From a virus (lineage: Duplodnaviria > Heunggongvirae > Uroviricota > Caudoviricetes), in the IMG/VR virus record IMGVR_UViG_2576861205_000005: DNA of 8,059 nucleotides; one strand, 5' to 3'. The notes below the pieces were generated by a model, which worked only from the letters and a program-made list of their open reading frames with translations, was not told the DNA's origin and made no database searches. The position numbers and the translations under genes are program-made. Positions 2,538 through 8,059 of this stretch are shown here, one piece after another. The stretch's first letter is position 1. Each line of letters begins with the position of its first letter.

Positions 2538-2547
2538 TGGAGTGGAT

Positions 2548-5526
2548 ATGGCAGCAGTAAAAATCTCAGGTGTGCTGAAAGATGGTGCGGGAAAACCAAT
2601 ACAGAACTGCACTATTCAACTGAAGGCAAAGCGTAACAGCACCACGGTACTGGTGAACACGGTGGCCTCTGAAAATCCGGATGAAGCCGGGCGTTACAGT
2701 ATGGACGTTGAGTATGGTCAGTACAGCGTCACCCTGCTGGTTGAAGGTTTTCCACCTTCACATGCCGGGACCATTACCGTCTATGAAGGTTCCAGACCAG
2801 GTACGCTGAATGATTTTCTCGGTGCCATGACGGAGGATGATGTCCGACCGGAGGCACTGCGCCGCTTTGAGCAGATGGTGGAAGAGGTGTCACGTAACGC
2901 CTCCGCGGTTGCACAGAATACGGCAGCCGCGAAAAAATCAGCCAGCGATGCCAGTGCATCAGCCAGCGAGGCGGCAACTCATGCAACCGATGCTGCAGCC
3001 TCAGCACGTGCCGCCAGCACGTCAGCCGGACAGGCCGCGTCGTCGGCTCAGTCAGCGTCTTCCAGCGCAGGAACGGCATCGACAAAGGCCCGTGAAGCAG
3101 CAAAAAGTGCTGCTGCTGCAGAGTCATCAAAAAGCGCGGCAGCTACCAGCGCCAGTGCCGCGAAAACGTCAGAAACGAATGCCGCAGCGTCACAACAATC
3201 AGCAGCCACTTCTGCATCCACCGCGACCACGAAAGCGTCAGAAGCAGCCACTTCAGCACGGGATGCGTCGGCTTCAAAAGAGGCGGCAAAATCATCAGAA
3301 ACGAACGCAGCCTCGAGCGCCAGCAGCGCAGCTTCCTCGGCAACGGCGGCAGCAAATTCTGCGAAGGCGGCAAAAACGTCCGAGACGAACGCCAGGTCTT
3401 CTGAAACGGCAGCGGGACAGAGCGCCTCAGCTGCGGCAGACTCAAAAACAGCGGCTGCATTATCTGCCAGTGCCGCGTCAACAAGTGCCGGGCAGGCCTC
3501 AGCCAGTGCCACCGCCGCCGGAAAATCGGCAGAAAGTGCTGCATCGTCTGCTTCAACAGCCACAACGAAGGCTGGCGAAGCCGCTGTACAGGCCAGCGCA
3601 GCAGCGAGGTCTGCTTCCGCAGCGAAGACATCCAAGACGAACGCGAAAGCGTCGGAAACCAGCGCAGAATCCTCAAAAACGGCTGCCGCATCGTCCGCCA
3701 GTTCGGCGGCGTCATCGGCATCATCTGCGTCTGCTTCAAAAGATGAGGCGACCAGACAGGCGTCAGCAGCAAAGGGCAGCGCCACGACGGCATCCACGAA
3801 GGCGACAGAGGCAGCTGGCAGTGCGACGGCGGCAGCTCAGAGCAAAAGTACGGCGGAATCCGCGGCAACGCGCGCTGAGACAGCGGCAAAACGGGCAGAG
3901 GATATTGCATCCGCCGTGGCGCTTGAGGATGCGAGCACGACGAAAAAGGGGATAGTACAGCTCAGCAGTGCGACTAACAGCACTTCCGAGTCACTGGCGG
4001 CAACGCCAAAAGCCGTTAAGGCCGCGTATGAGCTGGCTAACGGGAAATACACCGCACAGGATGCAACGACAGCACAGAAAGGGATAGTTCAGCTTAGCAA
4101 CGCGACCAACAGCACATCTGAAATGCTGGCGGCAACGCCAAAGTCGGTAAAGGCAGCCTATGACCTTGCTAACGGGAAATATACTGCTCAGGACGCTACG
4201 ACAGCACAAAAAGGAATTGTCCAGCTCAGTAGTGCAACCAACAGCGCATCTGAAACGCTTGCCGCGACACCGAAAGCAGTGAAAGCAGCTAATAATAATG
4301 CGAATGGTCGGGTACCTTCTGCCCGTAAGGTGAATGGTAAGGCGCTTTCAGCGGATATAACACTGACGCCGAAAGATATTGGTACGCTTAACTCAACAAC
4401 AATGTCATTCAGCGGTGGTGCTGGTTGGTTCAAATTAGCAACGGTAACCATGCCACAGGCGAGTTCTGTTGTTTCAATTACGTTGATTGGTGGTGCGGGA
4501 TTTAACGTGGGGTCACCTCAACAGGCAGGTATATCTGAACTTGTTTTGCGTGCAGGTAATGGTAATCCGAAGGGGATTACTGGTGCTTTATGGCAGCGCA
4601 CATCGACAGGGTTTACAAATTTTGCCTGGGTCAATACATCTGGTGATACTTACGATATTTACGTTGCAATCGGAAATTATGCGACTGGTGTAAATATTCA
4701 ATGGGATTATACCAGTAATGCCAGCGTGACGATTCATACGTCACCAGCATATTCTGCTAATAAGCCGGAAGGGTTAACGGACGGTACAGTTTATTCACTC
4801 TATACGCCATCAGAGCAGTTTTATCCGCCTGGCGCACCAATCCCGTGGCCATCAGATACCGTTCCGTCTGGCTATGCCCTGATGCAGGGGCAGACTTTTG
4901 ACAAATCTGCATACCCGAAACTTGCAGCCGCTTATCCGTCAGGCGTGATCCCTGATATGCGTGGCTGGACGATTAAGGGCAAACCCGCCAGTGGTCGTGC
5001 CGTATTGTCTCAGGAACAGGACGGCATTAAATCGCACACCCACAGCGCCAGCGCATCCAGTACGGATTTGGGGACGAAAAACACATCGTCGTTTGATTAC
5101 GGAACCAAATCCACGAATAACACCGGGGCGCATACGCACAGTCTGAGTGGCTCTACGGGGTCTGCCGGTGATCATACTCATGGTAATGGTATTCGTTGGC
5201 CAGGAGGCGGCGGTTCTGCGTTAGCATTTTATGATGGCGGTGGGTTCACTTATGTCCAGGATTCACAGTATCAAGTAAGCCCGGGGACTTCTTCCCGTAG
5301 ATCGTATTATCAACGTATTCAGACACAGTCAGCAGGTGCTCATACCCACTCGCTGTCTGGTACTGCAGCAAGTTCTGGCGCACATGCACATACTGTAGGT
5401 ATTGGTGCGCATACGCACTCCGTTGCGATTGGTTCACATGGACACACCATCACCGTTAACGCTGCTGGTAACGCGGAAAACACCGTCAAAAACATCGCAT
5501 TTAACTATATTGTGAGGCTTGCATAA
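2548..5526 (+). CDS. stf: Side tail fibre protein (lambda Stf family), long variant with expanded Ala/Ser-rich shaft, tandem 44-aa repeats and His-x-His-rich C-terminal tip
   Basis: The ORF track starts at GTG 2542. I prefer ATG 2548, which has GGAG 5 nt upstream and gives [27 protein letters not shown]..., matching my recollection of the lambda Stf N-terminus. C-terminus ...[31 protein letters not shown]. The stop overlaps the tfa start (TAATG). Confidence 0.9.
3943..4290 (+). repeat. In-frame tandem repeat inside stf: 2.7 copies of a 132-bp (44-aa) unit
   Basis: Units begin at 3946, 4078 and 4210 (period exactly 132 nt). Encoded peptide is KGIVQLS(S/N)ATNS(T/A)SE(S/M/T)LAATPK(A/S)VKAAY(E/D)[15 protein letters not shown]. 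Copies differ mostly at synonymous positions; the third copy is truncated. Confidence 0.9.
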
Positions 5527-6110
5527 TGGCATTCAGAATGAGTGAACAAGCACGGACCATAAAAATTTATAATCTGCTGGCCGGAACTAATGAATTTATT
5601 GGTGAAGGTGACGCATATATTCCGCCTCATACAGGTCTGCCAGCAAACAGTACCGATATTGCACCACCAGATATTCCTGCTGGCTTTGTGGCTGTTTTCA
5701 ACAGTGATGAGGCATCGTGGCATCTCGTTGAAGACCATCGGGGTAAAACGGTTTATGACGTAGCGTCAGGGGACGAGTTATTTATTTCTGAACTCGGTCC
5801 GTTACCGGAAAATGTTACCTGGTTATCGCCGGAAGGGGAGTTTCAGAAGTGGAACGGCACAGCCTGGGTGAAGGATACGGAAGCAGAAAAAATGTTCCGG
5901 ATCCGGGAGGCGGAAGAAACAAAAAACAACCTGATGCAGGTAGCCAGTGAGCATATTGCGCCGCTTCAGGATGCTGCAGATCTGGAAATTGCAACGGAGG
6001 AAGAAACCTCATTGCTGGAAGCCTGGAAAAAGTATCGGGTGTTGCTGAACCGTGTTGATACATCAACTGCACCTGATATTGAGTGGCCTACGAACCCTGT
6101 CAGGGAGTAA
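5526..6110 (+). CDS. tfa: Tail fibre assembly protein (lambda Tfa family)
   Basis: 194 aa, [44 protein letters not shown]..., the same length and near-identical start to lambda Tfa as I recall it. Start overlaps the stf stop. Confidence 0.9.
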
Positions 6111-6159
6111 TCATTGGGATTATGCCGCAGCACGTCTTAAGCGAGAACGTGCTGCGGTT
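5946..6159 (+). repeat. Direct repeat copy 1 (tfa 3' end plus downstream hairpin), left flank of the cargo gene
   Basis: agtgagcatattgcgccgcttcaggatgctgcagatctggaaattgcaacggaggaagaa...cctgtcagggagtaatcattgggattatgccgcag...gtgctgcggtt recurs at 6995-7209 with scattered substitutions. Confidence 0.9.
6125..6157. terminator. Perfect 11-bp stem / 11-nt loop hairpin between convergent tfa and methyltransferase genes; putative bidirectional terminator or recombination-associated structure
   Basis: CCGCAGCACGT (6125-6135), loop CTTAAGCGAGA, ACGTGCTGCGG (6147-6157). There is no T-run immediately after the stem, so the terminator role is uncertain. It lies inside the direct repeat. Confidence 0.45.
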
Positions 6160-6164
6160 GGATG

Positions 6165-6833
6165 CTATTTTTTCCCTGAAGCGGAAAACATTACTACAGT
6201 ACCTTGAACCTTGGTTTTAACATTCTCGAAATGCTCTGAGAGTATATGTGTTAAGCCTTCTTCGGAATCTTTTGTGTTTGAAAAGATGCCTTTCTGATTG
6301 TAAATGCGCATCAGTTTTTGACCGAAGCTATTGTGCACAACTCCATCGCCAAGAATTGTGGCTCCGTATAGAGTTCCATCGTCAGTTAAGGCCTGCGCCG
6401 CATTGCGTATTACACAGCTTTTTGTAGATATATTTCCAGGCAGGCAGTGAAGAAGGTAAAACATGGAAATGGAATCAAATTGACCATGTAACGCCGCGGG
6501 ATAAGGTTCAAAAACATCATGGCTAATTTTATGTTTAATTTTTGATTCCCCAGCCCTTGTAGATGCCGCGTTCAGGCTAGCTTCGTTCAAATCCATTAAA
6601 GATATCAGACTACTCTCAGGTACGTGAGTAAGGTAAAACCCAGTTCCAACACCAATATCCAGATGGTTGTTACCTACATGTTCCAGAAAGTGTGGAAGAA
6701 GGTGTTCCTTTGTAGGACATCCCCATGCAAGCCGATTTGATACTCCCAAAACCCACCAGTCATAAAGCTTTAGGGTAAGTGGTGTGTAAATTTTAGCCCC
6801 ATCATCTGTGTTTTTTTTCATTGATTTCACCAT
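6165..6833 (-). CDS. Class I (Rossmann-fold) SAM-dependent methyltransferase, small-molecule/RNA/protein type; prophage cargo (moron) gene
   Basis: 222 aa. Motif I HLDIGVGTGFY; acidic post-I residue in ISLMD; motif II-like FDSISMFYLLHCLP; motif III-like LTDDGTLYG. Upstream YDWW...RLAW spacing resembles UbiE/COQ5-type enzymes. No DPPY/NPPY or PCQ DNA-methyltransferase motifs. Opposite strand to all phage genes. Start is ambiguous: the first ATG (6831-6833) has no Shine-Dalgarno, whereas the in-frame ATG at 6819-6821 (Met5) has GGTG upstream. Confidence 0.75.
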   Translation of the reverse strand: MVKSMKKNTDDGAKIYTPLTLKLYDWWVLGVSNRLAWGCPTKEHLLPHFLEHVGNNHLDIGVGTGFYLTHVPESSLISLMDLNEASLNAASTRAGESKIKHKISHDVFEPYPAALHGQFDSISMFYLLHCLPGNISTKSCVIRNAAQALTDDGTLYGATILGDGVVHNSFGQKLMRIYNQKGIFSNTKDSEEGLTHILSEHFENVKTKVQGTVVMFSASGKK

Positions 6834-6889
6834 GTTATAGTTTTATTTGTGAATTAAATCAATTATGGCGATGAATTACAAGGGGTTAA
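6834..6889. promoter_or_regulatory. AT-rich divergent intergenic region; candidate promoter(s) for the methyltransferase (minus) and the tfa-C fragment ORF (plus)
   Basis: 56 bp of AT-rich sequence (ttatagttttatttgtgaattaaatcaattatgg...) between two divergent starts. No -35/-10 was confidently assigned. Confidence 0.3.
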
Positions 6890-7159
6890 ATGCTGCCGCA
6901 GCATAGCGATATTGAAATAGCCTGGTATGCTTCGATACAGCAGGAGCCGAATGGCTGGAAGACCGTCACCACACAGTTCTACATCCAGGAATTCAGTGAG
7001 TATATTGCGCCACTGCAGGATGCTGTAGATCTGGAAATCGCAACGGAGGAAGAAAGATCGTTGCTGGAGGCATGGAATAAATATCGGGTATTGTTGAATC
7101 GTGTTGATACATCAACTGCACCTGATATTGAGTGGCCTGCAAATCCTGTCAGGGAGTAA
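6890..7159 (+). pseudogene. Truncated/chimeric tail fibre assembly protein: novel 35-aa N-terminus fused to the conserved Tfa C-terminal ~54 aa
   Basis: [37 protein letters not shown] then [52 protein letters not shown], against tfa ...[58 protein letters not shown] ribosome-binding site 4 nt before the ATG. It may still be expressed. Confidence 0.6.
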
Positions 7160-7209
7160 TCATTGGGATTATGCCGCAGACACGTCGTATGCAGGAACGT
7201 GCTGCGGTT
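6995..7209 (+). repeat. Direct repeat copy 2 (tfa 3' end plus degenerate hairpin), right flank of the cargo gene
   Basis: Homologous to 5946-6159. The hairpin here carries a 1-nt bulge (CCGCAGACACGT ... ACGTGCTGCGG, 7174-7207). Confidence 0.9.
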
Positions 7210-7273
7210 AGTTTGTGAGCTTTCGATAGTGGTTGTTATTTTTGCCCTTATTTGTTCCGGAGGCCATGGTTCA

Positions 7274-7444
7274 ATGGTCCGTCTGCCCCCTGTGGTGATG
7301 TCAGCAAAATCAGCCACTGCGCGAACCACAATAGCCCGGGAAGATGCTGAAGATCACCAGGTAAAGCTATCAGCGCAGAAACTGGAAGAACTGCTCGCAT
7401 CAATGGTTAAGGATGAGGTTGATCGCAATGATGGGATTTATTGA
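7274..7444 (+). CDS. Hypothetical small protein (56 aa), prophage-end ORF of unknown function
   Basis: GGAGG at 7259-7263, 10 nt upstream of ATG 7274. Product MVRLPPVVMSAKSATARTTIAREDAEDHQVKLSAQKLEELLASMVKDEVDRNDGIY. The stop overlaps a 14-codon ORF (ATGA junction at ~7428-7444). The longer track ORF from 7163 begins inside the tfa repeat, so I do not take that start as real. No family recognised. Confidence 0.25.
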   Translation: MVRLPPVVMSAKSATARTTIAREDAEDHQVKLSAQKLEELLASMVKDEVDRNDGIY

Positions 7445-7559
7445 CGTCAGCGAGAGCAGAAGGAAGAACTGAATAACCTGAATGATTTACGCTCAATCAG
7501 AGCGATGATGATTGGCAGTAATTAGCGGTCAATTTCGGTTTTTTTGGCTGTGCGCTCCC

Positions 7560-7756
7560 CGCCCAGCATTGCGCGTCAATTAGCCCCAAAAAAACGAAAA
7601 AGTTACAATCAAGTAAAAAATTCCTTCTGCAAAACTAAAAAAGATTTCAATAAAATCAGACAGTTAAAAACATAAAAAAAAGGTACAAAAAAACATCTCA
7701 AAGTCTTGTTTTTTGCTTCAAATACAATTGGTTATTGTGTTTTTTGAAACCTACCA
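7560..7756. other. AT-rich non-coding tract at the prophage end; candidate attachment-site arm (attR-type P arm) abutting the host ompW fragment
   Basis: About 200 bp with long A/T runs (cccaaaaaaacgaaaaagttacaatcaagtaaaaaatt...cataaaaaaaaggtacaaaaaaacatc...) and no ORF of 60 aa or more on either strand, immediately before the ompW-like reading frame. Confidence 0.4.
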
Positions 7757-7873
7757 GTCTGGTACATGGATATTGATACCACTGCCAATTATAAACTGGG
7801 CGGAGCACAGCAACACGATAGCGTACGCCTCGATCCGTGGGTGTTTATGTTCTCAGCAGGATATCGTTTTTAA
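7757..7873 (+). pseudogene. ompW: Displaced 3' end fragment of outer membrane protein W gene (ompW/yciD), at the prophage-host junction
   Basis: Translation ...VWYMDIDTTANYKLGGAQQHDSVRLDPWVFMFSAGYRF* matches the OmpW C-terminal beta-strand as I recall it, including the terminal aromatic. An in-frame TGA lies just upstream (7742-7744) and the sequence before ~7757 is AT-rich and non-coding, so only the 3' portion is present. Exact breakpoint not determined. Confidence 0.65.
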
Positions 7874-7887
7874 TTCCGCACAAAAAT

Positions 7888-7907
7888 GACCCCGTAATTA
7901 CGGGGTC
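7888..7907. terminator. Bidirectional Rho-independent terminator between convergent ompW fragment and downstream minus-strand gene
   Basis: GACCCCGTAATTACGGGGTC perfect palindrome, with AAAAAT upstream and AATAAGG downstream. Confidence 0.8.
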
Positions 7908-7931
7908 AATAAGGACATGGTATAAAGGGTA

Positions 7932-8059
7932 TTATTTCTTCGCTTCTACGCCATCAGTTTCAGAGCGAATTAAGAATTTCTCAGTTGTTTGCGGAATATG
8001 CTGAATTAGCCAGTCGGCCATGTGCTTTTCATCATTTAAAATCGCTTCGATAATCGGAA
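7932..8059 (-). CDS. yciE: 3' end of a convergent host gene, probably the DUF892/ferritin-like protein YciE (5'-partial; continues beyond the window)
   Basis: Minus-strand frame open to the window edge, ending ...PIIEAILNDEKHMADWLIQHIPQTTEKFLIRSETDGVEAKK* (stop is the reverse complement of 7932-7934). Convergent with ompW, as in the E. coli ompW-yciE arrangement from memory. Name assignment is from recollection only. Confidence 0.5.
   Translation of the reverse strand, partial: PIIEAILNDEKHMADWLIQHIPQTTEKFLIRSETDGVEAKK

Follow-up and report, generated by a model that had tools for sequence, protein, structure and literature searches.

How does a short reading frame that carries only the C-terminal end of a tail fibre assembly protein (Tfa) come to lie about 1 kb downstream of a complete tfa gene, and does its product play any part in fibre assembly? 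We address these questions in a stretch of 8,059 nucleotides of viral DNA (IMG/VR record IMGVR_UViG_2576861205_000005), which we refer to as the window. A previous sequence-only reading had described an open reading frame (ORF) of 89 amino acids with an ATG start and an upstream AAGGGG, both of which are indeed present, and had proposed that it was either the remnant of a second tfa allele or an expressed mini-chaperone. We find that the ORF is a chimera of two unrelated phage genes and belongs to the TfaX family. It is probably a remnant produced as a by-product of recombination, one half of which forms the right-hand repeat of a cassette carrying a methyltransferase gene.

The window and the Tfa-derived part of the ORF

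The window corresponds to the right end of a lambdoid prophage of phylogroup-B2-type Escherichia coli, with 100% identity over query positions 5526-7460; the hosts of matching prophages include MS8345, UTI89, APEC O1, S88 and the type strain ATCC 11775. Reading from the left, we find the 3' part of J (8-1816), lom (1884-2483), stf (2542-5526) and, on the plus strand, a full-length tfa (5526-6110; 194 aa), which is recognised by Pfam Caudo_TAP (E = 1.3e-44) and labelled 'tail fiber assembly protein' by PGAP. The start of tfa at 5526 abuts stf, so that the tail fibre gene lies directly upstream of the chaperone gene. Two kinds of repeat occur within stf, a tandem array of three 132-nt units (3926-4321) and long Ala/Ser-rich families (2926-3800).

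Beyond tfa lies a minus-strand gene for a class I SAM-dependent methyltransferase of the ybcY family (6165-6833). It has Pfam methyltransferase domains and matches PHROG 2132 with E = 4e-157; NCBIfam and PADLOC returned only sub-threshold matches for it. A divergent spacer (6834-6889) separates this gene from the ORF, whose 89 codons occupy 6890-7159 on the plus strand. The AAGGGG motif, at 6880-6885, ends four nucleotides before the ATG. Further right, PGAP calls a plus-strand pseudogene fragment of tail-fibre-like type, with DUF4376 (7256-7525), which has an internal stop and is similar to the fibre genes stf2 and tail4 from SerU-LTIIb and Rac-SA53. Finally, a 3' fragment of ompW (7748-7873) is followed by yciE, and because these two adjoin each other we conclude that the prophage is inserted in ompW. 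Its attR presumably lies within the AT-rich stretch 7540-7750.

The 3' end of tfa is repeated, in direct orientation, within the ORF and beyond it. Positions 5934-6130 and 6983-7179 (197 nt) are 89% identical, far beyond chance, and after a 1-nt indel the repeat continues for another 29 nt at 86% identity (6131-6159 versus 7181-7209). The left copy (5934-6159, plus strand; repeat families D3 and D10) comprises the last 59 codons of tfa and 49 nt downstream, and the right copy (6983-7209, plus strand) comprises the Tfa-derived part of the ORF, which we denote tfa', and 50 nt downstream. Directly past the tfa stop codon there is a plus-strand hairpin (6124-6158) with a G+C-rich stem of about 11 bp (fold -29 kcal/mol, z = -4.3), in which a consensus scan called no intrinsic terminator. 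A second copy of the hairpin lies at about 7173-7208, in the right repeat.

At the protein level, 51 of 63 residues of the ORF product are identical to those of Tfa residues 132-194 (E = 1e-33). Caudo_TAP (PF02413) scores the ORF at 88.3 bits against a cut-off of 22.1 (E = 6e-25) and aligns its residues 31-86 with profile positions 75-130 of 131 only, in agreement with the earlier view that nothing but the conserved C-terminal segment of Tfa is kept. For residues 1-30 there is no match to this profile; that is, the fibre-binding N-terminal domain (positions 1-74) is absent. The ORF is, moreover, preceded by the opposite-strand methyltransferase gene and not by a cognate fibre gene. PGAP labels 6983-7159 as a 'tail fiber assembly protein' pseudogene without its N-terminus. 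The Rfam model RF02111 ('IS009', a candidate sRNA) also falls on these segments, with 223.8 bits on 5869-6067, in the 3' coding region of tfa, and 112.5 bits, just below the gathering score of 117, on the tfa' copy (6913-7116). RF02111 appears to describe the conserved tfa 3' end, rather than a separate RNA gene.

Codons 36-89 of the ORF and its stop codon (6995-7159, plus strand) correspond to Tfa residues 141-194. In these 54 codons common to both, tfa and tfa' differ at 18 of 162 nucleotides, which amount to 12.5 synonymous and 5.5 non-synonymous differences (dS = 0.44, dN/dS = 0.10). The residue changes are T to R, K to N, T to A, H to Y and A to V. The first three had been singled out previously as non-synonymous, which they are, yet most differences between the copies are silent. 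Because dS is 0.44 and dN/dS 0.10, with mostly silent differences, tfa' is a separate tfa allele; the pattern is that of two alleles that were both functional as they diverged, and not that of a local duplicate in decay. The earlier suggestion of a second, diverged allele is to this extent borne out. Its companion, a second fibre-specificity cassette, is not, as there is no inverted fibre segment.

These counts bear directly on the possibility that the 3' end of tfa was duplicated in tandem in place and decayed neutrally, the methyltransferase gene being inserted later. The copies are direct repeats about 1 kb apart, as such an event would leave them. We nevertheless regard this history as highly improbable: the differences are of the mainly synonymous kind seen between functional alleles of different phages, the flanks are mosaics of alleles across many backgrounds, and the methyltransferase gene together with the N-terminal part of the ORF forms a constant block in unrelated phages.

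TfaX and the two parents of the ORF

The ORF, in fact, already has a name. Its residues 1-88 align with profile positions 1-88 of 88 of PHROG 2341 (E = 4.1e-61). In the DLP12 prophage of E. coli K-12 the gene order is tfaD, ybcY (minus strand, a pseudogene) and tfaX, and the K-12 tfaX sequence aligns to the window from the start of the methyltransferase gene, across the spacer and the same ATG, as far as codon 61. The next codon, 62, is TGA in K-12 where the window has TGG, and beyond it lies a different tfa allele. The ORF is therefore a member of the TfaX/PHROG 2341 family and the intact form of the K-12 DLP12 gene tfaX, which is already annotated. Its membership of the Tfa family is partial, by way of the C-domain alone, and so is that of PHROG 3893, by way of the N-terminal third alone. 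Literature searches on tfaX, ylcE and ybcY yielded incidental mentions only.

A 151-nt probe (6850-7000) that runs across the spacer, the N-terminus and the joint with tfa' detects this junction in 3451 of 5426 complete E. coli genomes (about 64%), mostly as one copy and with at least 95% identity in nearly all. The element is also carried by the isolated phages ev243, 2G7b, the PhiR26/29/30/49/68 series, Turner and Kati. Among representatives of one genome per species, the exact joint occurs in E. coli and E. albertii only, besides two short MAG contigs, and the E. albertii copy shows zero nucleotide differences from the window. Since the joint is restricted to Escherichia and the E. albertii copy is identical, we conclude that the element is young and spreads horizontally. 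The two MAG contigs, with tfaX of the 2G7b type and the K-12 type, come from bins assigned to Bacillus and Planococcaceae; they are likely to be E. coli or phage contamination.

The N-terminal segment had been described as new, and it had been proposed that it might be the end of a different tfa allele. Its length of 35 codons is correct, but it is not novel, and when the comparison is run the segment turns out to be the first 35 or so residues of an unrelated protein, that of PHROG 3893. With residues 1-38 as query, tblastn finds, besides identical copies, Klebsiella phages (Kp4882-3; 51% identity, E = 8e-6) and, more weakly and at a constant genomic position, HK225, HK140, mEp390, Eeyore, Flotzy, LLS and an Erwinia phage. 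All of these matches are N-termini of one small gene, which we refer to as gene X, with a product of 79 aa in Kp4882-3 and Eeyore and of 99 aa in HK225 (gp29). The same 38-residue query in hmmscan places ORF residues 3-37 on PHROG 3893 positions 2-36 (E = 5.7e-8), and hhalign, with a gene X profile built from 34 family members, aligns profile positions 1-36 with ORF residues 2-37 (95.9% probability, E = 5.7e-9, 53% identity). The alignment of the ORF with gene X ends at residue 37. Codons 1-35 of the ORF (6890-6994, plus strand), which we denote X', come from the 5' end of gene X.

The product of intact gene X is uniformly 79 aa long in Klebsiella, Raoultella, Enterobacter, Erwinia, Pantoea, Salmonella and E. 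coli, and NCBI records call it 'DNA polymerase V'. The family has no Pfam domain, and neither gene X nor the ORF has a match in NCBIfam or PADLOC. At its native loci, gene X is divergent from dinI, overlaps the start of a humD/umuD'-like gene, and has upstream of it a Shine-Dalgarno sequence and a canonical LexA box (TACTGTATAT…ACAGT; CTGT-N8-ACAG). In this part of the window, neither a box scan nor an alignment to native gene X loci reveals a LexA box near the ORF, the spacer included, and X' is followed by Tfa sequence and the hairpin, with no humD/umuD'-like gene. The ribosome-binding site and the ATG, by contrast with the LexA box, occupy identical positions in native gene X and in the ORF when the DNA is aligned, and both come from gene X. 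A confident AlphaFold2 model of gene X (pLDDT 88; H43-53, E57-59, E69-72) gave no significant Foldseek match in the PDB (best E = 0.06), the top rows being mostly winged-helix domains. Of this native fold, the ORF retains only helix 1, the hairpin and the beginning of helix 2.

The joint falls in the plus-strand interval 6983-6994 (ATCCAGGAATTC), where gene X (ATCCGGGAACTC) and tfa (ATGCAGGTAGCC) share microhomology. By DNA alignment it lies between GAATTC and AGTGAG (6994/6995), at codons 35/36, with Tfa-derived sequence from AGTGAG (6995) onwards; it is because of the microhomology that the repeat as called by the software begins 12 nt earlier, at 6983. The joint is common to all copies examined, and therefore the fusion arose once. 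In phage Ayreon, gene X is longer, decayed, in the same frame and unfused to tfa, which shows that the arrangement of methyltransferase gene and gene X predates the fusion. Ayreon was also considered as a representative of the state before insertion and rejected in that role: it arose by deletion and retains the final codons of the methyltransferase gene. In strain MLI106K4, the PGAP annotation has a frameshifted 'DinI family' pseudogene on the strand opposite X'. It probably stems from DinI annotations that extend too far and cross gene X in antisense, as they do in phage Eeyore.

We propose that a single illegitimate join, at the level of microhomology, would have linked codon 35 of gene X, a small SOS-regulated phage gene of PHROG 3893, to codon 141 of the tfa allele of another phage. 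The remnant would thereby have kept the ribosome-binding site and ATG of gene X while losing its LexA-controlled promoter region, its third helix and its wing, and it also lacks the fibre-binding N-terminal domain of Tfa.

The methyltransferase cassette and its tfa repeats

The block that extends from the region of the post-tfa hairpin through the methyltransferase gene and the spacer to X' is constant in all of the 80-plus loci examined, whereas the sequence to its left and right varies among loci. Its backgrounds include lambda-type stf-tfa regions, other fibre types (2G7b and a tailspike prophage) and P2-like prophages at smpB. For example, a P2-like prophage shows about 99% identity to the window across the methyltransferase gene and spacer (dS = 0.02; 55 of 56 nt in the spacer), but in the Tfa-derived part of the ORF dS jumps to 0.58, and this part matches the prophage's own tfa. 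The last 150 or so nucleotides of that tfa, in turn, switch to the left-copy sequence of the window. The 3' half of the left repeat accompanies the methyltransferase gene in other phage backgrounds, and in a P2-like prophage it is identical to that of the window.

The cassette is also polymorphic for its presence. At this very ompW/yciE site, EFF60 and 190693 harbour the same prophage in a form that has neither the methyltransferase gene nor the ORF, and in both of them tfa is joined straight to the DUF4376 fragment. Measured from the stop codon, the switch from left-copy to right-copy sequence falls at -15 to +20 in one of them and at -61 to -21 in the other. When 127 distinct contexts are compared, breakpoints cluster in the repeats: on the right, 51 of 82 lie within tfa' (7024-7138), and on the left, 57 of 115 lie within 5989-6149.

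Because there are cassette-free sisters, differing switch points, a P2-like mosaic and breakpoints clustered in the repeats, we infer that the 3' ends of tfa act as homology arms, both for the exchange of the cassette among tfa-bearing phages and for its loss. The Tfa-derived half of the ORF would then be the right-hand direct repeat of a cassette of about 1.05 kb, whose parts are the 3' end of tfa with its hairpin, a methyltransferase gene of ybcY type as cargo, and X'::tfa'. Crossing-over between homologous copies of the conserved 3' end of tfa would insert this cassette into tfa-bearing prophages, both lambdoid and P2-like, and remove it again; gain and loss may each account for any single event, as either direction fits. 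It had been claimed, too, that the second copy is not homogenised with tfa. This goes too far: identity between the two copies is patchy and other prophages carry mosaic alleles, which shows that recombination or conversion has occurred repeatedly within this segment.

Genomes of the O157 type have a katN/yciGFE-like block that separates tfa from the methyltransferase module. Phage Chlobot was considered as a second case of cargo bracketed by tfa and rejected, because only the region downstream of tfa is repeated there, and not the coding end.

It is important to distinguish a cassette of this kind from an alternative or invertible fibre-specificity cassette, of which tfa' would be the chaperone gene for a second tip. 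The known invertible segments (Mu G, P1 C and e14 P) combine inverted tip and tfa genes with a serine invertase. A tail-fibre-like DUF4376 fragment does lie downstream of the ORF, and a DNA invertase is found near gene X in HK225 and Eeyore. However, tfa' is direct rather than inverted, the ORF list contains no frame of invertase size in 6111-8059, and tfa' is preceded by gene X and the methyltransferase gene instead of a fibre tip. The DUF4376 fragment, moreover, abuts tfa itself in the cassette-free prophages. We judge this reading to be very improbable.

Expression, constraint and known systems

If the ORF is a by-product of recombination, as we prefer to think, its product would have no dedicated role in fibre assembly. 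The opposite view is that it is an expressed mini-Tfa, translated for instance from late mRNA, whose conserved C-terminal helices oligomerise with Tfa or with fibre intermediates, so that it serves as a helper or acts as a dominant-negative. The intact ribosome-binding site and ATG favour such a protein, and so does its length in most copies. Among about 77 copies sampled with the spacer DNA as anchor, 48 encode 88-89 aa; in 12, the Tfa end with its conserved PDIEWP is replaced by unrelated sequence, giving 101 or 110 aa, and nonsense or frameshift changes of independent origin truncate about 17. The ORF is, in other words, intact in about two thirds of sampled copies and broken or 3'-replaced in about one third. 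Forms without the PDIEWP end are thus very common (82 aa, 101 aa and the 61 aa of K-12), which speaks against a mini-Tfa. The independent knock-outs include W12*, W62*, at least two frameshifts and the insertion of an IS66-family element, which cuts the O157-type ORF to 82 aa and so gives the most widespread variant found. Per nucleotide, disruption is only about 2.5 times higher than that of the methyltransferase gene, a ratio that stems from few independent events.

Polymorphism in the X-derived codons consists of 5 synonymous and 8 non-synonymous or stop changes (pN/pS about 0.37). This does not differ from the methyltransferase gene (pN/pS about 0.52), and the similar counts may be compatible either with selection or with none. 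Another count of synonymous and non-synonymous changes, from loci with 100% protein identity over residues 1-55, is biased towards silent changes and was dropped. The P2-like copy, with 83% amino-acid identity, keeps exactly 89 codons, as a functional protein might; its low dN/dS, however, is explained by import from that phage's functional tfa.

Transcription of the ORF is a second consideration. On the plus strand upstream of it, a sigma-70-like scan gave no promoter or terminator signal above shuffled expectation, which again disfavours a mini-Tfa, and the sole promoter-like site in the spacer is on the minus strand (6889-6862). As in the late transcription of lambda, Q-antiterminated transcripts could run from tfa into the ORF. 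In K-12, RNA polymerase holoenzyme binds the ybcY/tfaX spacer in vitro (PMC3946193), and tfaX transcripts have been detected, with a 2.5-fold increase of ylcE/tfaX in mixed biofilms (PMC3646849).

Structure gives arguments in both directions. The AlphaFold2 model of the ORF, of moderate confidence (pLDDT 72.7), is a helix-hairpin-helix-helix, in which one helix continues across the joint and two helices correspond to the Tfa C-domain. In favour of a mini-Tfa, the C-terminal domain of Tfa is proposed to mediate trimerisation (PMC9608196, citing the work on phage Mu Tfa). According to the summary of that work in the same paper, fibre binding and trimerisation need the N-terminal domain and the first helix of the C-domain (PMC9608196). 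The ORF is missing the former, the fibre-binding part, and lacks most of the latter, about the first two thirds of this long helix being replaced by gene X sequence. On balance, we consider a working mini-Tfa unlikely. It is still less likely, and indeed quite doubtful, that the 89-aa chimera, made during late transcription, acts by way of the conserved oligomerisation helices of Tfa to hinder or promiscuously aid the Tfa-dependent fibre assembly of co-resident or superinfecting phages. If interference of this kind were real, the ybcY-tfaX cassette would be a portable module of competition between phages, which spreads by using tfa as recombination arms.

Returning to the recombination by-product, the feature is real, ordinary and already annotated, and what is new here is its two-parent origin and its role as a repeat arm of a cassette. 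A common prophage ORF now bears three annotations, 'tail fiber assembly protein', pseudogene and 'protein TfaX'. These can be clarified by regarding it as a chimera of two parents, whose start comes from an SOS-regulated small gene and whose body comes from a foreign tfa allele. It also offers an example of a conserved tfa 3' end serving as the recombination arm that moves methyltransferase cargo between lambdoid and P2-like prophages. Annotation and models of phage mosaicism can both make use of this result; no new biological system is indicated.

How, then, does the ORF compare with known systems? The last 54 residues are homologous to the C-terminal helical domain of lambda Tfa and phage Mu gpU (Caudo_TAP), and the hairpin that follows tfa is retained in the window's second copy as well. 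Unlike those proteins, the ORF lacks the variable N-terminal domain, does not stand behind a fibre gene, and takes 35 residues from another family. With that other family, PHROG 3893 (HK225 gp29), it shares the N-terminal 36 or so residues, the ribosome-binding site and the position of the ATG, whereas the native members have 79 aa, a LexA box, dinI and humD/umuD'-like partners, and a predicted winged-helix-like fold.

Pieces of the tfa 3' end are likewise kept at a module boundary, after exchange or deletion of a fibre gene, in K-12 tfaD and in unannotated form in mEp460 and Ayreon. The fragment in the window differs from them in being fused in frame to a translation start and duplicated beside an intact tfa. 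Other fusion proteins, for their part, join different Pfam domains to Caudo_TAP. The closest relative is K-12 TfaX (b0563, formerly ylcE), which shares the start codon, the spacer, the X'::tfa junction and a divergent neighbour of ybcY type, and which is nearly 100% identical to the ORF through codon 61. K-12 TfaX differs in ending at 61 aa, in the tfa allele that lies beyond, and in the state of ybcY, a pseudogene. Compared with DLP12, the window presents the intact 89-aa form, in a prophage that has J, lom, stf and tfa intact at this end.
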